Shown in pieces: positions 30,069 to 42,848 of a DNA stretch of 64,000 nt. The stretch spans positions 139,805-203,804 of the forward strand of contig JAITKM010000007.1 of assembly GCA_031278395.1 (NCBI GenBank). The letters run 5' to 3'. The notes below the pieces were generated by a model. It did not search any database. It saw only the letters and a program-made list of their open reading frames with translations, and was not told the origin of the DNA. This DNA is from Deltaproteobacteria bacterium (GTDB lineage: Bacteria > Bdellovibrionota_C > UBA2361 > SZUA-149 > JAITKM01). A program made the position numbers and the translations under genes. Position 1 is the stretch's first letter. Each line of letters opens with the position of its first letter.

Positions 30069-30145
30069 GGTCCCGTAGCTCAGTTGGATAGAGCAACAGC
30101 CTTCTAAGCTGTGGGTCAGAGGTTCGAATCCTCTCGGGATCACCA
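30069..30145 (+). tRNA. tRNA-Arg (anticodon UCU), with CCA encoded
   Basis: Cloverleaf: acceptor ggtcccg/cgggatc, anticodon stem acagc/gctgt, loop ctTCTaa, T-loop ttcgaat, 3' a-cca. Confidence 0.9.
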
Positions 30146-30372: not shown

Positions 30373-31302
30373 ATGAACGCAAATCCGTCATATAAAGAAG
30401 AACTTTTAGTCTCTAGGCCCGTCTTAAAATGGGCGGGGGGTAAAGGTCAATTGCTGGAACAAATCACAGCTCGGTTGCCAAATAAACTTAAAGCTGGTGC
30501 TATTAAAAGATATATTGAACCATTTATTGGTGGTGGAGCTGTTTTTTTTGAAATAGCCAATACTTATTTTTTTAAAGAGGCCTTTTTATTTGATATCAAT
30601 CCGGAACTCGTTATTCTTTACAATGTTATCAAAAACGATGTCAAAAAATTGATTGATGAATTAGAGAATATTCAAGCGGCATATTATAGCTCCCAAGATA
30701 GAAACCTATACTACTATGACCGCCGGGATGAATATAACAAAAACAACAAATTTATTGATGCAAATAAGTATACTTCTGATTTTGTAAGGCGGGCGGCTTT
30801 AACCATTTTTTTAAATCGAACCTGTTTTAATGGACTTTTCAGAGTAAACAAAAAAGGGTTATTTAACGTTCCAGTGGGTCAGTATAAAAATCCAAAAATA
30901 TTAGATGCGGAAAACTTGTTGAATGTATCTGCCGTATTGCAAAATGCAATAATACACCAAGCTGATTTTGCTGTCGCACAAGAATACGCCAACAAAGATA
31001 CTTTTATTTATTATGATCCGCCATATCGGCCAGTTAGGGAAACGTCCAGTTTTAATTCGTATGCCGCCATTGATTTTGATGATGCGGAACAAGAGCGTTT
31101 ACATGATTTGTTTGTTGCGGTTGGGAATAAGAGTGCATTACAAATGCTTTCTAATTCTGACCCGACAAATTACATCTCCGATCCATTTTTTGATGATTTA
31201 TACAAAGGTTTTAAAATAAATCGGGTTATGGCAAAACGTCTTATCAATGCCAATGCTGATGGTCGTAACGAAATCCGCGAATTATTGATTACAAATTATT
31301 AA
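30373..31302 (+). CDS. Dam-like (alpha-class, D12) N6-adenine DNA methyltransferase; M1 of a DpnII/MboI-type R-M system
   Basis: PVLKWAGGKGQLL, motif I YIEPFIGGGAVFF, motif IV IYYDPPY. Confidence 0.85.
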   Translation: MNANPSYKEELLVSRPVLKWAGGKGQLLEQITARLPNKLKAGAIKRYIEPFIGGGAVFFEIANTYFFKEAFLFDINPELVILYNVIKNDVKKLIDELENIQAAYYSSQDRNLYYYDRRDEYNKNNKFIDANKYTSDFVRRAALTIFLNRTCFNGLFRVNKKGLFNVPVGQYKNPKILDAENLLNVSAVLQNAIIHQADFAVAQEYANKDTFIYYDPPYRPVRETSSFNSYAAIDFDDAEQERLHDLFVAVGNKSALQMLSNSDPTNYISDPFFDDLYKGFKINRVMAKRLINANADGRNEIRELLITNY

Positions 31303-31703: not shown

Positions 31704-31869
31704 AGATTTCTCCCCACAGCATCAATGAAATCTGACCTCCATGATACAGAATTCTTGTTTAAAATGATGTATCTGATAATGGTTCAAGAAAAAACGAACG
31801 ACCCCACAGGAACTTTAACTAGTGGCATTATTTATAAGTTAAAACATCAAGAAGATTGGTTTGGTTTAT

Positions 31870-32653
31870 TATGAGCGTAAAACCATACAGACTTTATTGT
31901 GCTGACTGTCTGGAACAATTAAAAGAAATTCCAGAAAATACTTTTGATATGATATTCGCAGATCCGCCATATATGCTTTCAAACGGAGGCATAAGCTGTC
32001 AGAGTGGCAAAGTTGTTTCGGTTAACAAAGGTGGCTGGGATAAAAGCCAAGGCTTTGAAAAAGACTTTGAGTTTCACAAACAATGGCTTGAACTTTGCAA
32101 AAGAGTCTTAAAACCTCATGGAACGTTATGGGTTTCTGGAACCTATCACAGCATTTACTCTTGTGGCTTTGCGCTGCAATTGCTCGGATATCATATTTTG
32201 AATGATATTTCTTGGTTCAAACCGAATGCCAGCCCCAATATGTCCTGTCGGTATTTTACCGCCAGCCATGAAACTTTAATTTGGGTTAGAAAAGATAAAG
32301 ATAGCAAACATATCTTCAATTATGAAGCAATGAAGAATGGCAGTTTCCCAAAGGATTTTTTGAAAAAGGCGGATACTCAAATGCGCAGCGTATGGGCGAT
32401 TGGAACGCCAGCCATGTCCGAAAAATCTCATGGAAAACATCCCACACAAAAACCGATAGATTTATTGGAACGCATTATTTTAGCATCTACTAATCCCGGA
32501 GCTTTAATTTTAGATCCATTCATGGGGAGTGGCACGACCGGTGTCGCGGCCATAAAATTAGGCCGGAAATTTGTAGGCATTGAAAAAGAACAACTATTCA
32601 TTGAATTGGCAGAAAAAAGATTGTACGATGCAACTATAAGCGCTGGAGAATAA
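31870..32653 (+). CDS. Beta-class N6-adenine/N4-cytosine DNA methyltransferase (DpnA/M2-like)
   Basis: Motif IV DMIFADPPY lies near the N-terminus and motif I ILDPFMGSGTTGVAA near the C-terminus (beta permutation). The ORF track opens at a TTG (31856); the ATG at ~31870 (MSVKPY) is more likely. Confidence 0.8.
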
Positions 32654-32654
32654 T

Positions 32655-33566
32655 ATGAAGCAAAACCCATCTTTCCAAAAAATATTAAATTGCAAAACCA
32701 GTGATGACGTTTTTGAATGTTTGGTTTCTAACTTGAAGCAAACCATTAAATCTTGGGATTACTTTGTTAATTGGAGCAAGGTTATTAAAAATTACAGGGA
32801 TATTGAAACAAGGCTAAATATCCTCAATACGTTGATTGGCAAGTCTGATATCAAAAAAGAAGCTAAAGAGTTATTGAATAAATATCCAGAAATCATGCCT
32901 ATTGTTCCAGATCTTCTAGCTTATAGAGATAGACAGGTTAATATTCTTTCCGACTTTAAAACTTTTGGTTTTGAAAGCTATGATTTTTCAAAACCTATCA
33001 ATGTTGATAAAGCTGTAAAATTTTTGGATAAAAGCGGATTCCTTAAATTACTTTCGGATAGAAATATCAAATCCATACCGGATTATTTCATTGGTATAGG
33101 GGTTGGATTAGACAGTAATGGTCGCAAAAATCGTAGCGGAACAGCTATGGAGGACATTATCGAATTTTTTGTTAAAGATCTTTGTGATAGAAATGGGTTT
33201 GAATATATTACCCAAGCAACTGCGGATAAAATAAAATCAAAATGGGACAAGACTATTACTGTTAATAAATCCTCAAAGCGAATTGATTTTGCAATTAACA
33301 CTCCGGGAAAACTTTACCTAATTGAAACTAATTTTTATGACGGTGGTGGCTCTAAATTAAAATCGACAGCTGGAGAATATATTGATTCTTACAACCAATG
33401 GACAAACGATGGACATCAATTTATTTGGATTACAGATGGATCTGGCTGGAAATCCACAAGGGGACCGTTAAGAGATACTTTCGATGTGATTGATTACATT
33501 TTGAATATCGATATGGTTCAAAAAGGCATTTTGGAAAATCTAATTATAGAAAAGGATAAGGTGTGA
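32655..33566 (+). CDS. Type II restriction endonuclease, DpnII/MboI (GATC) family-like
   Basis: 303 aa; overlaps the stop of M2. Segments GIGVGLDSNGRKNRSGTAMEDI, YLIETNFYDGGGSKLKSTAGEY and WITDGSGW resemble the DpnII endonuclease family as I recall it; the M1-M2-R gene order matches DpnII/LlaDCHI. Confidence 0.55.
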   Translation: MKQNPSFQKILNCKTSDDVFECLVSNLKQTIKSWDYFVNWSKVIKNYRDIETRLNILNTLIGKSDIKKEAKELLNKYPEIMPIVPDLLAYRDRQVNILSDFKTFGFESYDFSKPINVDKAVKFLDKSGFLKLLSDRNIKSIPDYFIGIGVGLDSNGRKNRSGTAMEDIIEFFVKDLCDRNGFEYITQATADKIKSKWDKTITVNKSSKRIDFAINTPGKLYLIETNFYDGGGSKLKSTAGEYIDSYNQWTNDGHQFIWITDGSGWKSTRGPLRDTFDVIDYILNIDMVQKGILENLIIEKDKV

Positions 33567-34392
33567 GAAAAAATATTGATATCACAGAGCAAGAATATAA
33601 AACCACCATACAAAAATTCTATGAATATTTTGAAAATGGATATCTTTTTGAAAACTTCTTAAAATCGTTTTTAGACAAAATAGGACTTGATGAAATATCT
33701 GTTACTCAACGTTCTCGCGATGGAGGTTTTGATTTAAAAGCATCTCGCTTTGGTGTTGGAGGCTTTAGTGAAGCCGATGCAGTAAATTACTATGTACAAG
33801 CGAAGAAATGTTCTCCAGAACAACGTATATCTGTCAAAGCAATCAGAGAATTAAAGGGCCTTATTCCCTTCGGGCATAAGGGAATTTTTATTACAACTGC
33901 AAAATTTTCCGCTGATGCAGAAAAGGAATCGAATAACGATCCATCAAACCAGTTGTACTTATTGATGGAAAATCTCTTGTTAGCAGCTGTATAGATCATG
34001 AAATAGGTTTTACTTTTAAACCCATATTCAACAAAGCTGCTATGGATGAATTAAAGCAAATTCATTATCCCGAAACATCGGAAGCAGAAGCAAATGAGAA
34101 TGAAAATACACTCGTTGTGGAACGACAAATAACGCTAAACGACATGAGATCTAGAATATTTCCTATTCCCCGCCTAATAAAAGATAATATGCCAGAGGGT
34201 TTATCTAAAATGGATGTATATTTAGAGGATGGGTCAAAAATAACATTGTCTGTCGATAAAGCAGGCCGTTATTTAGCCGGCATAACTAAGCTCTATAAGA
34301 AAGAGGGCTTGATCTTAGAAGACGGAAGCTTTAATCCCAAAAAATCTATCTGGACGTTATCTTCTGGTGTATTAAAGATATCTTTTTCATAA
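33563..34392 (+). pseudogene. Mrr-like (Mrr_cat) restriction endonuclease gene interrupted by a frameshift
   Basis: ORF 33563..33994 carries the Mrr catalytic core (RDGGFDLKAS...YVQAKK...GIFITTAKFSADAE). The continuation (KPVVLIDGKSLVSSCIDHEIGF, the typical Mrr C-terminal block) lies in another frame running into ORF 34042..34392. The shift maps to an A-run near 33945. The start overlaps the REase stop (ATGA), suggesting translational coupling. Confidence 0.5.
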
Positions 34393-34620: not shown

Positions 34621-35526
34621 ATGCGGATAGCAGAGATTAAAATACGAAATTTTAGAAAACTTAAAGAAGTGGTGATAGATTTTCATTCTAAAAAAACCGT
34701 ATTTATTGGTGCAAACAATAGTGGAAAAACAAGCGCTATAACTGCTATGTGTTTATTTTTAGAAGATAACCAAAAATTCTCAACCTATGATTTTCCGTTA
34801 TCAAATCATCTAAAAGTCAATGAACTTTTTGAAAAAGAGGTCGAACCATCAAAACAAGAAGTGGATGGTGTTTTTCCCGCTCTTGATTTATGGTTTTATG
34901 TCGAAGACAAAGATATTCATCATGTAAGCCAGCTATTGCCTACATTAGATTGGACGGGTGGCGACTTAGGAGTTCGTTTGCGATATGAAATAAAAGATAT
35001 TGCTAAATTGTTTAGCGACTATAAAAGCGCTCGAGATAAAATCAAAGGTAAAAATGGCCTATTTCCAAAAGATATGATGGATTACCTTTCAAAAAATCTT
35101 TCCGACCATTTTGAAATTCGTCGTTATGTCCTCGACCCTGCCCAAAAGGCTAAAATCCAAACTCAAGAAACTTTGGGAGAAAAATTAGAAATTAACCCAC
35201 TAGATAACATTCTACGAATAAATACAATTAACGCGCAACGTGGTATGAGTGATGAAGTCGCAGACGCAAAACAATCAGAAAAACAAAAATTAACAGCGTT
35301 AATGACAAAGTATTACACTTCTCATCTTGATCCCAATACAGGAGAAATGACCGAAAAAGATATAAAGGCACTTGAAACATTAAACACGGCAACAGAAGAT
35401 TTTACTAAAAATATGAGAGCCAACTTCAAGCCAGCCTTGGAAGAAATTGCAAAAATTGGATACCCACCTTTTGGAGCACCGGATATTACTATCAACCTTA
35501 TTATATCTACCTTATCAAACAGATAA
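34621..35526 (+). CDS. AAA/ABC-type ATPase N-terminal fragment (OLD/AAA_15-like); probable remnant of a defence gene
   Basis: MRIAEIKIRNFRKL...VFIGANNSGKTSAI (Walker A); 301 aa with no signature motif, Walker B or nuclease domain before the stop. Confidence 0.45.
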   Translation: MRIAEIKIRNFRKLKEVVIDFHSKKTVFIGANNSGKTSAITAMCLFLEDNQKFSTYDFPLSNHLKVNELFEKEVEPSKQEVDGVFPALDLWFYVEDKDIHHVSQLLPTLDWTGGDLGVRLRYEIKDIAKLFSDYKSARDKIKGKNGLFPKDMMDYLSKNLSDHFEIRRYVLDPAQKAKIQTQETLGEKLEINPLDNILRINTINAQRGMSDEVADAKQSEKQKLTALMTKYYTSHLDPNTGEMTEKDIKALETLNTATEDFTKNMRANFKPALEEIAKIGYPPFGAPDITINLIISTLSNR

Positions 35527-35625
35527 GGTGTTCCATGATATAAAGTTAATACACTATCCGACAAATTACTCTTTTTGTTGGCGTTGTTGTATAAAAAGTA
35601 TTTTGATTTAGTTTAATTTAGACAA

Positions 35626-35784
35626 TTATGAAATTTTGCTTTCTTTATAAACTACGTGTTTGCGAACAACTGGATCATATTTTTTAAGTTCTAATTTTTC
35701 TGTTTTGCCTTTTTTATTTTTGGCAGTTGTATAAAAATGTCCAGTTTTTGCAGAAGATACTAATTTGATTAAATCTCTTGGCAT
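35626..35784 (-). CDS. rpmG: 50S ribosomal protein L33
   Basis: The minus-strand ORF translates to [52 protein letters not shown] (52 aa), a close match to bacterial L33. It is below the ORF-track length cutoff. Confidence 0.8.
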
Positions 35785-35878
35785 AATAATTTACCTTTAG
35801 AATAAAATTAAATAAAAAATGAAAGCGCTTTGATAGCAACTTACTGATATTATTGCAAACCTGTTTGTAAAAATATTA

Positions 35879-36097
35879 CTAATTAGTATATTTCTTTAAT
35901 TCTTTGTCTAAATCATCAAAACTTTTTCCAGAGATAGTATCTAGTTCATCAACTATATTGTCTTCGGCGAAGAACCAATTATAATAAGAAATGGCAATGA
36001 CAATTATTATAAAAGCCACGACTAATATTATAGCTCTACTAGCTATCTGAGAATTAGAAGGATATTTAATGCCTAAATCATTTGTTTTGTTTTCCAT
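35879..36097 (-). CDS. Hypothetical small membrane protein (72 aa, one TM helix)
   Basis: ORF with a hydrophobic core AIILVVAFIIIVIAISYY. Confidence 0.3.
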   Translation of the reverse strand: MENKTNDLGIKYPSNSQIASRAIILVVAFIIIVIAISYYNWFFAEDNIVDELDTISGKSFDDLDKELKKYTN

Positions 36098-36550
36098 ATT
36101 AATTACTTAAAATAAACAGAAAAGTTTATATTTTTAGCCTAACAACAGCCGGGAGGCAAATAATATAAATTAACTTTGATTACAAGATGCTTTTAAAAAA
36201 TTGAATGTTTTCGAGTTTTCGATAAATAAAATAGTTATAGCCTGCGTTGTTGGATTTATAATCTAATTTAAAATATAGACTTGTGCTTTTAGGGTCGCAA
36301 ACATATCTCTCCGTCATTTAACTTAACCTCAAGTTGTTTGACGTTAACCCGTTAGCTAATAACTCCTATAACTATTGTGTTATATTTGCCATTTGACTAA
36401 AAATATTTGCCTATTATTTTAATAGCTTATTTATTGTTTTTTATAACTACCTAATTTTATTAGTTTTTAAAAAAATAATACATGGTCACAAAAAAATATA
36501 ATTCATGTATAAGAGTTTTGAAGTTTATTGATAACTTGAATAGGTATTTT

Positions 36551-37180
36551 ATGAAAAATTTATTACTTTTTGCAATATTAACAGTTTTTATTAGTTTTCC
36601 GAGCCATTCAAGTGCATATGTTTATAGCTATAATAAAAACTATAATACTAATAATAGTGCGATTTATTCAAAAAAGACAACGGCTTATAATAATATTTAT
36701 AACCCTCTTAGAAAACATTCAAACATTCCAAGTTTAAGATCTGTTAATCCATATGAAGCAAGGCGAATTGATTATGTGCTGAAACAAGAAAAATATTTTA
36801 GGGATTTAGCTTTGGCTGAAGCTAGAGCCGACGCTAATTATGCAAAAAGGAGATTAATTAGGCAGGAAAAAGAACGTAGAGTAGAAGAACAAGCTAAAAG
36901 ACGTTTAGTTAGAAATCAGCAACTAGCCGCTAAAAATAATAAAAACAAGGTGAAAACTGACCAATTATTATTGGCTGACAAAAAATTGCTTTTGGACAAA
37001 AAGGATAAAAAGAACTTAGAAGTTGTCAAGAGTTCTGATTTTAATATGATTTCTGACTCATTAGAACAAAATGCAGATTATAAATATATTCCCAAAAAAC
37101 AGGAAAAAGTCGTTTTGGCAACAACCGAACAGCCTTCATTTTTTCAACGTTTAAGATGGGCGTTATTTGGTAGAAATTAA
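36551..37180 (+). CDS. Hypothetical secreted, highly charged protein
   Basis: Signal peptide MKNLLLFAILTVFISFPSHSSA, then a K/R/E-rich coiled region. The ORF track opens at 36482; the ATG at 36551 gives a canonical signal peptide. Confidence 0.4.
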   Translation: MKNLLLFAILTVFISFPSHSSAYVYSYNKNYNTNNSAIYSKKTTAYNNIYNPLRKHSNIPSLRSVNPYEARRIDYVLKQEKYFRDLALAEARADANYAKRRLIRQEKERRVEEQAKRRLVRNQQLAAKNNKNKVKTDQLLLADKKLLLDKKDKKNLEVVKSSDFNMISDSLEQNADYKYIPKKQEKVVLATTEQPSFFQRLRWALFGRN

Positions 37181-37269: not shown

Positions 37270-37947
37270 ATGGCAATTCCTAAAAATATTTGCTTTTTTG
37301 TAATTTTTTATTTTTTTCTAGCTCCCCCCCTATCAGCGGCAGAAAATAAAGGGGTTTATAAATATATTCGTGAGGACGGCGAGGTAATTTATACTACAAC
37401 GCCACAGAACAAAGGTGACCTTCCTGAACAATTACCTGAAATAAAAAAGGAGAATTTAACTTCCAAAGTTGAGAACCTGAAGCAAAATACTCCACGGACT
37501 TGTGAAGATCATGGAGGTATTAATTGCCAAGCTGGAGCTGGAGTTGAGAAAAACGTAATTTGTCATGATGGCTGGACTCAAGCAGAAATCCCTTATCGTT
37601 TAGCTTGTGTTAATGTTGTGTTAAAAATTATTAACACTAGTTTGGTTGGGCAAGATGGACAAATTATGGATTATGATAAAAAAAAGAATATCCTAGATGA
37701 AATTAAGCTAAAACGCGCTACAGCTGTGCAATTTACGGTTAGAAACAATAATACAGTTAAGGCTAAAGATGTCTTGCTCGCGCTGCAAATTTCACGGAAT
37801 GAAAAGATTACCGCGCTAGGTAGCAACTATATTGAGCCATATGCTGTCGAAGATTATATTTTTCCTATTGCTGAGTTTCTTAAACAACCTAAACTCAAAT
37901 ATTTTAACACTGGCTTAATTAAATTAGAGTGTTCAAATTGTATGTAG
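37270..37947 (+). CDS. Secreted protein with a DUF4124-like N-terminal domain
   Basis: Signal peptide, then VYKYIREDGEVIYTTTPQ, which resembles the DUF4124 motif. Confidence 0.4.
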   Translation: MAIPKNICFFVIFYFFLAPPLSAAENKGVYKYIREDGEVIYTTTPQNKGDLPEQLPEIKKENLTSKVENLKQNTPRTCEDHGGINCQAGAGVEKNVICHDGWTQAEIPYRLACVNVVLKIINTSLVGQDGQIMDYDKKKNILDEIKLKRATAVQFTVRNNNTVKAKDVLLALQISRNEKITALGSNYIEPYAVEDYIFPIAEFLKQPKLKYFNTGLIKLECSNCM

Positions 37948-38088
37948 GTACATAGATGAGATAAAAGAGATGTATGCGGCAAAGTAAAATGCCGAGAAAA
38001 TTCTCAGGTATACACGCCGCCGTCGCAGGAAGAACTCGAAAATTACACAGGGATAACCCTATTACTTCATTTCAGCAGTCCAGACATC

Positions 38089-38340
38089 CGCCAGATTCTC
38101 CGCCTGCTTTATAACAAGCTCTATTGCGGCGGGCTGTTTGTCCGGCGGATAGCCATATTTATTAAGTATCCTTTGGACGCTGACCATAATGCGGGCGCGG
38201 AGCTGTCTCTTTGATGGCAAAGTCAATGGTCGCGTTTTTTCTGACCTTGTCCGCTATCTTGCGGACGATTTCCCGAGGCTGCCCTTATTCCATAAAGTCG
38301 AGTGGTTGCCCGTTCAGCGTTGACTTTACCTCTCTCCACA
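38089..38340 (-). pseudogene. hsdR: hsdR (Type I restriction subunit) C-terminal remnant with frameshifts
   Basis: Minus-strand frames give ...LNKYGYPPDKQPAAIELVIKQAENLADVWTAEMK* and, after a shift, REIVRKIADKVRKNATIDFAIKETA, matching the HsdR C-terminal domain; the N-terminal ~90% is missing. Confidence 0.5.
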
Positions 38341-38375
38341 TTGGCATATATTTATCCATTAAAGCGACAAACTTT

Positions 38376-38831
38376 TTATTGTGCTTTTTTCTCAACAAGG
38401 TGAACTAATTCGTGGATAACGACGTATTCGAGGCTTTCCGGCGTTTTCTTGGCAAGCTGTGTGTTCAGCCTATTTTTCCTGTGTTTGTGTTGCTCGTTCC
38501 CCAACGGGTGGTCATGTATTTGGTTTGCCACGTTGAAGTGCGCGTTATCTATAATCCCTCGGAGGTTGTTCGCCTCGGCAAGGCGGGCGATGACTTTATC
38601 CATTTCTTCGCCGATGTTCTTATTGCCGATAAGCGCAAGCATATCATCAAAACTCCCGCCTTCGGGAACGTCGATGTCGCCGTATGCCACGCCTTTGAAC
38701 TTGTCCGACACATACTTCACGAACAAAAGCGTCAGTATGTAATCTTTGTATTGTGAACTGTCCATGCCGCCGCGCAAGCTGTCGCAGCTTACCCAAAGGC
38801 TTGAATAGAGTTCACTTTTCTTGACCGCCAT
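38376..38831 (-). pseudogene. hsdM: In-frame chimera of an HsdM N-terminal domain (~100 aa) and a DUF45/YgjP-like metallohydrolase C-terminus
   Basis: N-terminus MAVKKSELYSSLWVSCDSLRGGMDSSQYKDYILTLLFVKYVSDKF matches HsdM_N; C-terminus PESLEYVVIHELVHLVEKK matches the DUF45 HExxH region; the methyltransferase catalytic domain is absent. Confidence 0.55.
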
Positions 38832-39108
38832 TAGCTATCCCTCCGAGTTGTGCATCTATATAAGAATTAGTGCGCTGTTAGTTTTCTTCAGCGCTCTCGC
38901 CGGAAATTAAGTAACTGCCCAGTTCAGGCGTGTATATGTTAAATGCTCGGGGTGAGGGGGGCGTTTGTTGAACCATCCCCTCGGAAAACAGTCAGCATTA
39001 ATCTCGCGAGGCACGAATGTATAACCTCCTAACCGAATAAGTGATCGATTGGTCGAGTCGCAATAATGACACGCGGCGCTTGATACACTAAGAGTGTAAT
39101 TCTGTAAA

Positions 39109-39516
39109 TTAATTTACTGTTTGCAGCGAAACATTACTGCCGCCGGATTGGTTGATGACTTCCATAACTGAAACAAGTTGTTGTGTAGTAGAGCTCCGCT
39201 CCGCTTGTAACAGGATAGCTTGTTGCGGGTCTGTGTTTAATTGTCTAGTTAACTGCTTTTTTAATTCGGCTAAGTTAATCGGGGATTTATTGAAAAAAAT
39301 ACTACCATCCTTAGTAACGGAAATAACTAAGACACTTTTTTTATTCATCTCAATTGTATTCTGTGATTCTGTTTGGGGTAAATCAAGCTTAAGCCCCTGT
39401 AGATCAATAAATGAACTGGTAACCGAAAAAAACAACAGCAATAAAAACACTACGTCAATTAGTGGCGCCATGGTAATTTCTGGTTTTATTTTATGAGGAT
39501 TGGTAAACTTCAACAT
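39109..39516 (-). CDS. ExbD/TolR-family protein
   Basis: 135 aa with an N-terminal TM (PLIDVVFLLLLFF) and a periplasmic domain. Confidence 0.75.
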   Translation of the reverse strand: MLKFTNPHKIKPEITMAPLIDVVFLLLLFFSVTSSFIDLQGLKLDLPQTESQNTIEMNKKSVLVISVTKDGSIFFNKSPINLAELKKQLTRQLNTDPQQAILLQAERSSTTQQLVSVMEVINQSGGSNVSLQTVN

Positions 39517-42056: not shown

Positions 42057-42848
42057 ATGCTTAGATCATTATATATTGGCGCAACTGGGATGATAGCTCA
42101 ACAACTTAGTTTGGACGTTGTTGCTAATAACTTAGCTAATGCTAATACCACTGGATACAAGAAAGGACGCGCAGATTTTCAAGACTTAATGTATCAAATT
42201 GTGCAAGAGCCGGGAACTACTGCTAATCAAGCCGGCACAGGTCCAACAGGTATTCAAGTTGGTCTGGGTGTGCGTCCAGCCGCAGTAGGAAAAATTTTTA
42301 CCCAGGGCGATTTTCAATCAACTAATAATCCTCTGGATGTCGCTATTGAAGGTGACGGATTTTTCCAGATAACACTGCCGAATGGCGAATCTGCTTATAC
42401 TAGATCAGGAGCTTTTAAAATTAACGAAGATGGTTATTTAACAACTGCGGAAGGCTATTTAGTTGAACCAAATATTGCCCTGCCCGCAGATACTTTAGAA
42501 ATTACAATTTCTGCAGCTGGGACTGTCGCGGTTAGTCAGCCTAATGCTAGCGCTTTAAATACGGTTGGAGAATTGCAGGTTGCAAGATTCCAAAATCCCG
42601 CGGGCTTACGGGCTATAGGCAAAAATTTATTTCAAGAAACTGAATCTTCAGGAGCGCCAACACTGGCTGTGCCTGGTGAAGATGGTAGCGGAACTTTAGC
42701 GCAAAGGTTTTTGGAAGGTTCAAATGTAAGTGTTGTAGAAGAAGTTGTGCAAATGGTTACTAGTCAACGAGCATATGAAGCTAATTCAAAAGTGATTCAA
42801 ACCGCCGATCAAATTTTGCAATTAGCGCTTAATTTAAAGAGGTCTTAA
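42057..42848 (+). CDS. flgG: Flagellar distal rod protein FlgG
   Basis: MLRSLYIGATGMIAQQLSLDVVANNLANANTTGYKK and the C-terminal QRAYEANSKVIQTADQIL. Confidence 0.85.
   Translation: MLRSLYIGATGMIAQQLSLDVVANNLANANTTGYKKGRADFQDLMYQIVQEPGTTANQAGTGPTGIQVGLGVRPAAVGKIFTQGDFQSTNNPLDVAIEGDGFFQITLPNGESAYTRSGAFKINEDGYLTTAEGYLVEPNIALPADTLEITISAAGTVAVSQPNASALNTVGELQVARFQNPAGLRAIGKNLFQETESSGAPTLAVPGEDGSGTLAQRFLEGSNVSVVEEVVQMVTSQRAYEANSKVIQTADQILQLALNLKRS

Follow-up and report, generated by a model that had tools for sequence, protein, structure and literature searches.

Fragments apparently derived from two different Type I restriction-modification systems in a short GC-rich patch of a Deltaproteobacteria genome

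Results

Between two host genes that converge with their 3' ends, ORF225 on the plus strand (ending at 37,947) and exbD on the minus strand (ending at 39,109), lies a short GC-rich patch that carries pieces of three genes, hsdM, ygjP and hsdR. The features of the patch are listed in Table 1; the window is the whole 64-kb stretch of DNA that was analysed.

Table 1. Features of the GC-rich patch (positions in the window)
Feature	Position	Strand	Description
GC-rich patch	37985..39085	.	boundaries approximate, read from 100-nt GC windows
GC-rich (0.46) non-coding leader 5' of hsdM fragment	38832..39085	-	no match to a protein family
151-aa ORF	38376..38831	-	HsdM aa 1-100 + frame-shifted ygjP + short true YgjP
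hsdM 5' fragment, system A	38532..38831	-	codons 1-100 of ~810-aa large-type HsdM; ends ...IIDNAHFN
Junction 1, microhomology ACTTCAA (7 nt)	38533..38539	-	overlapping alignments q662-670, three-way nucleotide comparison
ygjP (DUF45 / M48-like metallopeptidase) 3' fragment, system A	38285..38539	-	last 85 codons (255 nt)
hsdR 3' fragment, system B	38062..38282	-	last ~73 codons (~220 nt), T1RH-like_C / DUF3387
Two terminator-like hairpins after hsdR stop (38,062-38,047 and 38,007-37,992)	37992..38062	-	consensus matches only

To characterise the patch, we compared its composition with that of the rest of the window. The GC content of the patch is 0.47 (0.473) against 0.36 (0.360) for the window as a whole, no other 1,146-nt stretch within the 64 kb is as rich in GC, and in sliding 300-nt windows a step from 0.33-0.38 to 0.45-0.50 was seen between approximately 37,950 and 39,150. 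The codon usage differed as well: GC3 was 0.64 in the hsdM piece, 0.56 in the hsdR piece and 0.49-0.56 in the ygjP piece, compared with a mean of 0.295 in 54 host ORFs (standard deviation 0.046, maximum 0.419). In addition, the tetranucleotide distance of the patch was the second largest among about 210 windows. Both composition and codon usage thus deviate from the host, as is expected of acquired DNA or a genomic islet, and the view of an earlier note on this DNA that the patch is foreign in composition was confirmed by the GC step, by GC3 and by the tetranucleotides. The sole other stretch of comparable GC, at 1,349-2,593, was considered as a part of the same foreign DNA and rejected, since it is glyA, a conserved housekeeping gene, with nrdR adjacent. 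Host DNA outside the ORFs has a GC content of only 0.314; an old pseudogene would have drifted in that direction, which also speaks for a foreign origin. The nearest relatives of each piece were found in organisms that are unrelated, among them Spirochaetes and Ruminococcaceae MAGs, and the host FlgG is closest to that of Bdellovibrionota MAGs (73-74%). We infer that the patch DNA came by horizontal transfer.

Direct and inverted repeats were searched for at the borders of the patch, but no convincing mark of mobility (integrase, tRNA, flanking repeats) was found there, and no integrase-like ORF adjoins it. The tRNA genes of the window, which were all that a search of Rfam returned, are located at 28.3 and 30.1 kb only, the nearest being an Arg tRNA (30,069-30,145) at a distance of 7.8 kb. 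A scan of genome contigs for relatives of the host with ExbB gave none; a scan with FlgG gave the Bdellovibrionota MAGs, which share only the ORF253-flgFGAHI synteny. This synteny stops at ORF253, and the exbBD/ORF225 neighbourhood is absent from these nearest genomes. Neither scan thus gave a syntenic relative of the host in which an empty site could be seen, and the boundaries of the patch are approximate. When the patch was compared by blastn with PLSDB plasmids and 5,426 E. coli genomes, no near-identical donor was detected; only the 5' end of hsdM was matched, with an identity of 68-76%. A truncated Gabija gajA is also present in this genome region.

Read along the minus strand, the first piece is the beginning of hsdM. 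The Pfam profile HsdM_N (PF12161) matched residues 10-106 of the 151-aa ORF with an E-value of 1.9e-14 (54.8 bits, above the gathering threshold of 24.5; profile positions 3-120 of 135), and the PADLOC profile MTase_I (PDLC03027) matched with 2.4e-50 over positions 1-105 of 810. The encoded protein is 92-95% identical to many metagenomic HsdM proteins and the DNA is 80-81% identical to loci L004 (a metagenome locus, JGI 3300042616) and L005; the hsdM gene of L004 is matched by the patch over its first 301 nt only. The 100 codons contain neither a stop nor a frameshift. HsdM_N was the only HsdM domain detected, and the N6-adenine methyltransferase domain (N6_Mtase, PF02384) was not found in the patch.

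The hsdM piece is followed directly by ygjP. The microhomology at junction 1 occurs in both the hsdM and the ygjP gene of the intact relative L004, and the junction is equivalent to a deletion of about 7.6 kb (L004 10,310 to 17,898), by which the remainder of hsdM, the complete hsdS and hsdR genes and ygjP up to about codon 147 were lost. The ygjP piece is joined to hsdM +1 out of frame and runs to its natural stop at 38,287-38,285. It carries a -1 deletion between 38,471 and 38,470 (TGG to TAG-G) and a +1 insertion at or in the A-run 38,385-38,391, and in a gapped alignment with the ygjP gene of L004 (76% identity) each sequence has one gap. The YgjP-like profile (PF01863) matched residues 118-148 of the ORF as encoded with 3.4e-8 (34.2 bits, profile positions 150-180), and after correction of the two indels the match improved to 2.1e-29 (103.5 bits, positions 133-205 of 207). 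A complete YgjP-like domain in one frame (about 207 positions, with HExxH) was not found, its N-terminal two thirds being absent.

The 151-aa ORF reads across the junction (…NAHFNVANQIHDHPLGNEQ…). Its HsdM part is followed by about 21 residues of out-of-frame ygjP (VANQIHDHPLGNEQHKHRKNR), then by 28 residues of true YgjP (LNTQLAKKTPESLEYVVIHELVHLVEKK), including HELVH, and finally by AQ and a stop. It was the secondary -1 deletion that brought the 28 YgjP codons into the hsdM frame, and the +1 insertion in the A-run that ended the ORF. In a collection of 15 billion proteins the chimera forms a singleton cluster. A Shine-Dalgarno sequence, GGAGGG (38,844-38,839), is intact 7 nt ahead of the ATG. 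No sigma-70-like site was found upstream of the ORF on the minus strand; overall the counts of such sites do not exceed those in shuffled sequences, and the promoters of the host may not follow this consensus. The ORF is situated directly downstream of exbBD on the same strand with no terminator-like site between them. With this Shine-Dalgarno sequence and this position, expression of the chimera, as the earlier note suggested, is possible, and read-through from exbB-exbD may lead to transcription of the remnant. Its 151-aa product is expected to be inert. The 277 nt upstream of the hsdM piece (38,832-39,108), to which the leader belongs, and the 114 nt downstream gave no Pfam match in six frames, and the only resemblance to a fetched locus seen by blastn and tblastx was a match of 15 nt of the leader to L005.

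At junction 2 the hsdR piece starts 2-3 nt past the ygjP stop. It represents about 7% of a classical hsdR gene for a protein of ~1,000 aa, and it carries a +1 insertion at ~38,199. The ORF at 38,226..38,062 matched T1RH-like_C (PF11867) with 2.5e-13 as encoded; after frame correction the E-value was 3.1e-21 (profile positions 266-328 of 329). The PADLOC profile REase_I matched with 2.7e-12 over positions 963-1023 of 1029. A T1RH-like_C domain within a full-length HsdR was not found, as only the last 63 of its 329 positions are present, with no hsdR body upstream, and neither the HsdR nuclease (HSDR_N) nor the SF2 helicase/translocase (ResIII) domain was found in the patch. The two hairpins behind the hsdR stop (GC 0.43) are probably the original terminator region of this gene.

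No ORF or Pfam match for HsdS (Methylase_S, PF01420) was found in 37,900-39,200. When the patch was compared by blastn and tblastx with loci that contain hsdS, the matches were confined to the 5' end of hsdM and the 3' ends of ygjP and hsdR. With no methylating, recognising, translocating or cutting part left, the locus is inactive as a restriction system. The domains that the earlier note had named, an HsdM N-terminus and a DUF45/YgjP C-terminus in the 151-aa ORF and a frameshifted HsdR C-terminus behind it, are present with significant matches, and its reading of a deletion footprint without hsdS and without any catalytic domain is supported, only non-catalytic scraps of the Type I genes being left. 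Its claim that HsdM is joined in frame to DUF45 is correct for the continuous ORF, but not for the junction itself, where the frames differ.

The same note had assigned all of the pieces to one Type I locus, which is not supported by their relatives. In the intact relatives of the hsdM and ygjP pieces (L002, L003 and L004) the order of genes is hsdM-hsdS-(cargo)-hsdR-ygjP, and the HsdR proteins of these loci gave no match to the hsdR piece of the window. Among 80 loci related to the hsdR piece, none had ygjP and none had an HsdM N-terminus at least 60% identical to that of the window; a ~500-aa HsdM of the L007 type was present in 30 of them, and 56 had an hsdR body directly upstream. Because the order HsdM N-terminus, YgjP C-terminus, HsdR C-terminus is unlike that of intact relatives and the HsdR belongs to another Type I family, sequence comparison assigns the pieces to two different Type I systems, A and B, whose remnants abut. 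Insertion of system A into the hsdR gene of system B was ruled out, the DNA upstream of hsdM having no similarity to hsdR.

Since protein database listings for short queries gave short proteins only, full-length relatives were reached through contig look-ups and a metagenome scan. System A resembles Type I loci in which HsdM is large (~800 aa) and a YgjP/DUF45 metallopeptidase gene of the M48 family stands at the end, as in L004 and in E. coli TUM1886 (L002, NZ_CP128970.1; hsdM-hsdS-darT-darG-hsdR-M48 peptidase). The first 300 nt of hsdM are 80% identical to L004 in nucleotide and 93-94% in amino acid sequence, and the last 255 nt of ygjP are 76% identical in nucleotide sequence, with the natural stop in common and HExxH in the same place. 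Unlike these loci, the window retains 100 of ~810 HsdM codons and 85 of 231 YgjP codons, has no hsdS, hsdR or methyltransferase domain of this system, and contains an out-of-frame fusion and two indels in ygjP. System B resembles classical operons (L010, L018, L023 and L028) of hsdM (~500 aa), hsdS and hsdR (~1,000 aa, ending in T1RH-like_C / DUF3387, PF11867). In L010-L029 the hsdR 3' ends are 78-84% identical to the piece in nucleotide and 84-90% in amino acid sequence over the last ~73 codons, the homology beginning at q919-926 and ending at the stop codon. In contrast to the classical operons, the window has neither that hsdM nor that hsdS, and its short, frameshifted hsdR piece abuts the ygjP gene of the other system.

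Solitary 3' remnants of hsdR are also found elsewhere, for example a 'DUF3387 domain-containing protein' of Ruminococcaceae bacterium OttesenSCG-928-D13 (P0131, L006; 84% identical) and a 98-aa ORF beside GmrSD in L007/L008; P0137 is 74% identical to the hsdR piece. Like the piece in the window, they consist of ~70-100 C-terminal HsdR codons that lack an hsdR body upstream and lie among or close to defence genes, but they are still open reading frames, whereas the copy in the window is frameshifted and stands directly behind the remnant of another system. An internal-deletion derivative of HsdM (P0040/P0047, L170-L172), seen on three contigs from three assemblies, breaks at the same codon after ...DNAHFN. 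Its N-terminal domain is 77-78% identical to that of the window and its length of 151 aa agrees by coincidence, but the N-terminal domain is fused in frame to the C-terminal tail of HsdM itself, an intact hsdS follows, and the junction nucleotides differ (CATTTTAAT/TAT against CACTTCAAC/GTG, the slash marking the junction). A literature search for DUF45/YgjP in combination with restriction-modification, or for SRR14710901, gave nothing useful.

Discussion

The patch is very likely a non-functional, recently decayed remnant of acquired defence DNA which was once two adjacent Type I systems. Decay of acquired restriction-modification genes is well known. In comparison with L004, pN/pS was 0.055/0.756 for the hsdM piece and 0.123/0.734 for the ygjP piece, so almost all of the divergence arose under purifying selection, which speaks for recent decay. 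The small indels, three only, point the same way, as does a C/T polymorphism at 38,277, where an ancestral Leu codon is changed to Pro in one of two assemblies. The ancestral arrangement is reconstructed from relatives that are distant: nucleotide identity reaches 76-84% at best, and the synonymous sites are saturated. System A would have had a large HsdM (~810 aa) and the order hsdM-hsdS-hsdR-ygjP, and beside it would have stood system B, a classical hsdM-hsdS-hsdR operon. A deletion of ~7.6 kb between two copies of ACTTCAA, which looks like slippage or illegitimate recombination, would have removed everything from hsdM codon 100 to ygjP codon ~147 and left an out-of-frame join, and of system B nothing but the final ~73 codons of hsdR would have been spared. 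Three 1-nt indels, -1 and +1 in ygjP and +1 in hsdR, presumably came later, and by chance they would have produced a 151-codon ORF behind the intact ribosome-binding site of hsdM. The decay could have taken place in this host or in the donor.

A single Type I system whose native gene order was unusual (hsdM ... ygjP-hsdR) and which was reduced by two deletions would also account for three pieces that share a strand and lie within 770 nt, and for an hsdR piece that begins right where ygjP ends, as neighbouring genes do; the gene order of Type I loci is in any case variable. We nevertheless consider it, and with it a donor with ygjP immediately before an hsdR of the DUF3387 type, unlikely, because ygjP follows hsdR in every intact relative of the hsdM and ygjP pieces examined, the HsdR of those relatives has no detectable match to the hsdR piece, and the 80 loci related to that piece have no ygjP or close HsdM N-terminus, while 30 of them have a different HsdM. 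Much less probable still is a chimera of metagenome assembly or binning, in which reads of an organism with higher GC would have been spliced into the contig. In favour of it are the short length of the patch, the likeness of its pieces to genes common in co-resident bacteria and the origin of the contig from a MAG; against it, the contig is 301,962 bp long with host genes to the left and right of the patch, and an independent Logan assembly of run SRR14710901 (L001, a 102-kb contig) has the same structure without gaps and with a single mismatch in 1,301 nt. Furthermore, microhomology junctions and compensating 1-nt indels are not normal for assembler chimeras.

It could likewise be argued that the 151-aa ORF encodes a functional small protein under selection, e.g. 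a free HsdM_N domain acting as a modulator or poison of Type I complexes, or a mini-metallopeptidase. The intact ATG and Shine-Dalgarno sequence, the position behind exbBD with no terminator-like site between, and 100 codons free of stops and frameshifts would fit; short ORFs with HsdM_N only also recur in databases, e.g. in a family of 254-aa proteins whose cluster has 175 members, and the independent 151-aa derivative of HsdM has the same breakpoint after AHFN. However, the protein is a singleton, about 21 of its residues are out of frame, 28 residues are left of a peptidase of ~230 aa, and the profile positions beyond about 180 fall past the frameshift. The flanking fragments are frameshifted as in neutral decay, and most short HsdM_N matches are cut by contig ends or frameshifts. 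A functional protein is thus highly improbable. Just as improbable is the combined reading that the ORF is transcribed by read-through from exbB-exbD, translated from its intact Shine-Dalgarno sequence and active, as free HsdM_N, as a modulator or decoy of Type I complexes; if this were so, it would belong to a broader class of HsdM_N proteins standing alone, so far undescribed, at which the 254-aa family and the independent derivative broken at the AHFN codon hint. The 151-codon 'fusion gene' is an accident of deletions and frameshifts, i.e. of ordinary gene decay.

With every catalytic part lost, the biological weight of the locus is small. It is a clean, small case of a microhomology-mediated deletion followed by decay through indels, with remnants of two different defence systems abutting, and it illustrates how compensating frameshifts can give rise to a domain fusion that seems to be in frame. 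The IMG label of the 151-aa ORF is 'type I restriction-modification system DNA methylase subunit', and 'R subunit' is the label of a 41-aa ORF; these two annotations are no grounds for crediting this MAG with a Type I system.

Composition of the patch

The GC-rich patch had been described in an earlier note as foreign DNA, and a step in GC content at its edges was present in 300-nt sliding windows: values were 0.45-0.50 between about 37,950 and 39,150 and dropped back after that, against 0.33-0.38 in the flanks. The interval reported at that time has a GC content of 0.473, compared with 0.360 for the whole window, and is the top 1,146-nt stretch for GC in the 64 kb. The sole other stretch of comparable GC (1,349-2,593) was rejected as belonging to the foreign DNA, since it contains glyA with the adjoining nrdR, which are conserved housekeeping genes. 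The GC3 of host genes was 0.295 ± 0.046 and did not exceed 0.419 (54 window ORFs of at least 120 aa), and that of the patch pieces was 0.64 for hsdM, 0.56 for hsdR and 0.49-0.56 for ygjP; host DNA outside the 54 ORFs has a GC content of 0.314. By tetranucleotide distance the patch ranked second among about 210 windows. The greatest tetranucleotide deviation in the 64 kb was found at 12,001-13,161. Two regions, 12,000-13,300 and 35,500-36,700, are strongly AT-rich (GC 0.22-0.27), the latter containing only rpmG and small ORFs.

Coordinates of the remnants in the patch and of features upstream of it
Feature	Position	Strand	Evidence or remark
tRNA-Arg (tct)	30,069-30,145		upstream of patch; defence gene run starts 228 nt after
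Dam-like methyltransferase	30,373-31,302		upstream of patch
N6_N4 methyltransferase	31,856-32,653		upstream of patch
DpnII-family endonuclease	32,655-33,566		upstream of patch
Mrr_cat (Mrr-like) nuclease	33,563-33,994		overlaps DpnII-family endonuclease gene
AAA_15 ORF, 301 aa	34,621-35,526	+	PADLOC GajA (Gabija) positions 1-317 of 736, 1.1e-87
151-aa ORF	38,831-38,376	-	Pfam HsdM_N and YgjP-like
hsdM codons 1-100	38,831-38,532	-	PADLOC, protein and DNA identity
ygjP/DUF45, last 255 nt	38,539-38,285	-	76% identity to L004 ygjP
hsdR, last ~73 codons	38,282-38,062	-	T1RH-like_C, PADLOC REase_I

Gene remnants and reading frames

The hsdM piece matched positions 1-105 of 810 of the PADLOC Type I methyltransferase model (2.4e-50). 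Its protein identity to many metagenomic HsdM sequences, Spirochaetes MAGs among them, was 92-95%, and its DNA identity to the metagenome loci L004, which carries an intact relative, and L005 was 80-81%. The Shine-Dalgarno sequence GGAGGG is intact (38,844-38,839). Homology ends past ...IIDNAHFN, where intact proteins go on D(E/D)xKLGKG..., and the ygjP piece, which shares its natural stop with L004 ygjP, takes over. The two alignments share the heptamer ACTTCAA, which is present at matching sites in both L004 genes; such an overlap is the mark left by a microhomology-mediated deletion. By the coordinates of L004, about 7.6 kb would have been lost at this junction: the remainder of hsdM, hsdS and hsdR in full, and two thirds of ygjP.

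The 151-aa ORF noticed earlier is present, with Pfam matches to HsdM_N (1.9e-14, aa 10-106) and YgjP-like (DUF45; 3.4e-8, aa 118-148). Its two parts, however, are not joined in frame, as had been proposed. Counting q along the reverse complement of window positions 39,200-37,900, codons start at q≡1 (mod 3) in the hsdM frame and at q≡2 in the ygjP frame at the junction, which puts the join out of frame. Compared with L004, the ygjP piece lacks one base at 38,471|38,470 (TGG to TAG-G) and carries an additional base at or within the A-run 38,385-38,391; solely between these indels does ygjP, by chance, lie in the hsdM frame. The ORF thus consists of HsdM residues 1-100, about 21 residues translated from ygjP out of frame and 28 true YgjP residues (LNTQLAKKTPESLEYVVIHELVHLVEKK), followed by AQ-stop. 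The small ORF next to it carries on the YgjP-like profile, and with both indels corrected the peptide matched profile positions 133-205 of 207 (2.1e-29). The fusion is accidental.

The frameshift reported in hsdR was also seen, as a +1 insertion at ~38,199. The ORF 38,226..38,062 matched the HsdR C-terminal domain T1RH-like_C as encoded (2.5e-13), a similarity that, like that to HsdM_N, is significant and upholds the remnant call; the frame-corrected peptide matched positions 266-328 of 329 (3.1e-21) and positions 963-1023 of 1029 of PADLOC REase_I. Nucleotide homology to intact hsdR begins at q919-926, 2-3 nt past the ygjP stop codon, and ends at the hsdR stop, downstream of which there are two terminator-like hairpins. 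The 277 nt from exbD to the hsdM ATG (GC 0.46) and the ~110 nt past the hsdR stop (GC 0.43) had no match in Pfam or among the fetched loci.

Number of Type I systems

Intact relatives of the hsdM and ygjP pieces, in E. coli TUM1886 (M-S-DarT-DarG-R-M48 peptidase), a Pseudomonas plasmid and L004, are ordered hsdM-hsdS-(cargo)-hsdR-ygjP. In this order an hsdR 3' end cannot find a place after the ygjP 3' end, and the HsdR genes of these three relatives did not match the hsdR piece in blastn or tblastx. We compared the latter with 80 metagenome loci encoding relatives at 62-90% identity. The hsdR body lay directly upstream in 56 of them, and 30 encoded an HsdM of a different type, of about 500 aa, whose N-terminus was 41-53% identical to that of the window HsdM (L007-L040, inspected one by one). 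An HsdM N-terminus at least 60% identical to the window's was found in none of the 80 loci, nor was ygjP.

The simplest reading of these sequences is that the patch brings together, end to end, what is left of two different Type I systems, system A of the large-HsdM, ygjP-terminated type and system B of the classical type, which has DUF3387 at the C-terminus. The two would have been cut down by at least two large deletions. Defence islands commonly hold tandem defence systems, and we infer that A and B were neighbours before the deletions. Of the decayed Type I locus proposed earlier, the Type I scraps were thus confirmed, but gene order and the 80 loci speak for two systems; overall, the observation stands and its interpretation, a single system with an in-frame fusion, is only partly supported. 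The patch adds one more case to a phenomenon that is well known.

Stranded HsdR C-terminal ORFs of about 97 aa, with T1RH-like_C only and no upstream hsdR body, were also seen elsewhere (L006 5057-5350, L007 10001-10297, L008 874-1170). One lies in a Ruminococcaceae genome beside DUF3788 and AraC-family genes, and another has GmrSD on one side and an AAA_15 fragment of 125 aa on the other, alongside a Type I system that is complete and lies on the opposite strand. It seems that the hsdR 3' end repeatedly outlasts deletion.

Possible function of the remnant

As had been noted, hsdS and the catalytic parts are missing: matches in Pfam, PADLOC and blastn/tblastx against the loci covered only the hsdM 5', ygjP 3' and hsdR 3' ends, and the methyltransferase catalytic domain, HsdS and the HsdR nuclease and helicase domains are all absent from the patch. 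The peptidase part of the 151-aa ORF amounts to 28 residues with HELVH, the remaining domain being deleted or past the frameshift, and among 15 billion proteins the ORF stands as a singleton. Read-through from exbB-exbD, which lie on the same strand with no terminator-like site in between, could bring about its transcription. That the free HsdM_N domain acts as a modulator we regard as very improbable, although short ORFs with HsdM_N only recur across databases and the breakpoint codon is shared with an independent deletion derivative of HsdM, likewise of 151 aa. We expect the product to be inert.

This derivative (P0040/P0047, same HsdM family; L170 4360-4815, L171 3102-3557, L172 602-1057) also breaks after ...DNAHFN. 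Unlike the window ORF, it continues in frame into the C-terminal tail of HsdM, and an intact hsdS comes next; the copies, found on three contigs that belong to three ENA assemblies, have Fic and GmrSD genes as neighbours. The same breakpoint codon with other junction nucleotides may reflect a domain boundary or a selected mini-HsdM. Recurrent HsdM_N-only proteins of 254 aa (P0084, P0088, P0098, P0100, P0105-P0108, P0117, P0120) depart from intact HsdM past ...FQKPELDFKNNKAE. One cluster of this family has 175 member sequences, some members come from contigs as long as 155 kb, and these may be genuine stand-alone HsdM_N proteins.

Independent assembly and age

The proteins encoded on either side of the patch match exactly those of the host MAG (locus tags LBE20_, a contig of 301,962 bp). 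The Logan assembly of SRR14710901 (L001, a 102-kb contig) contains the same patch without gaps and with one mismatch in 1,301 nt; therefore the junctions and 1-nt indels are not artefacts of one assembler. The mismatch lies at 38,277 in the hsdR piece: the window reads C (Pro), and Logan reads T, which gives the Leu of hsdR relatives. Either the population is polymorphic here or the consensus differs within a pseudogene; such a nonsynonymous change, seen between assemblies of one sample, fits neutral drift.

Against L004, pN/pS was 0.055/0.756 for hsdM_N and 0.123/0.734 for ygjP_C. Synonymous sites are saturated, and L004 is therefore not the donor; nearly all of this divergence accrued under purifying selection. 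The three small indels and the unameliorated GC, in a genome whose non-coding DNA has a GC of 0.31, suggest that inactivation was recent. ExbB and FlgG scans found no syntenic relative of the neighbourhood, and hence no empty site, in the collections searched; no mobility marks were found flanking the patch.

Genomic neighbourhood

ORF225 and exbD converge on the patch with their 3' ends, and a flagellar gene cluster adjoins it. Upstream, the segment 30,069-33,994 appears to hold an intact DpnII-type R-M cluster; no integrase was seen at this gene run. Its GC is host-like (0.33-0.37). The gajA-like ORF, which ends 100 nt short of rpmG (35,626-35,784, minus strand), looks like a truncated gajA without the Toprim half and without gajB, and so would be a second decayed defence gene near the patch. 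The neighbourhood thus amounts to a small defence island in which several systems have decayed.

Synteny with Bdellovibrionota MAGs is confined to ORF253-flgF-flgG-flgA-flgH-flgI, and the side with exbBD, ORF225 and ORF232 is specific to the lineage. Among the GTDB-representative genomes, host FlgG (42,057-42,848) was closest to Bdellovibrionota/Bdellovibrionales MAGs (L090, L091; 73-74% identity). The NCBI label of the host MAG is 'Deltaproteobacteria bacterium'.
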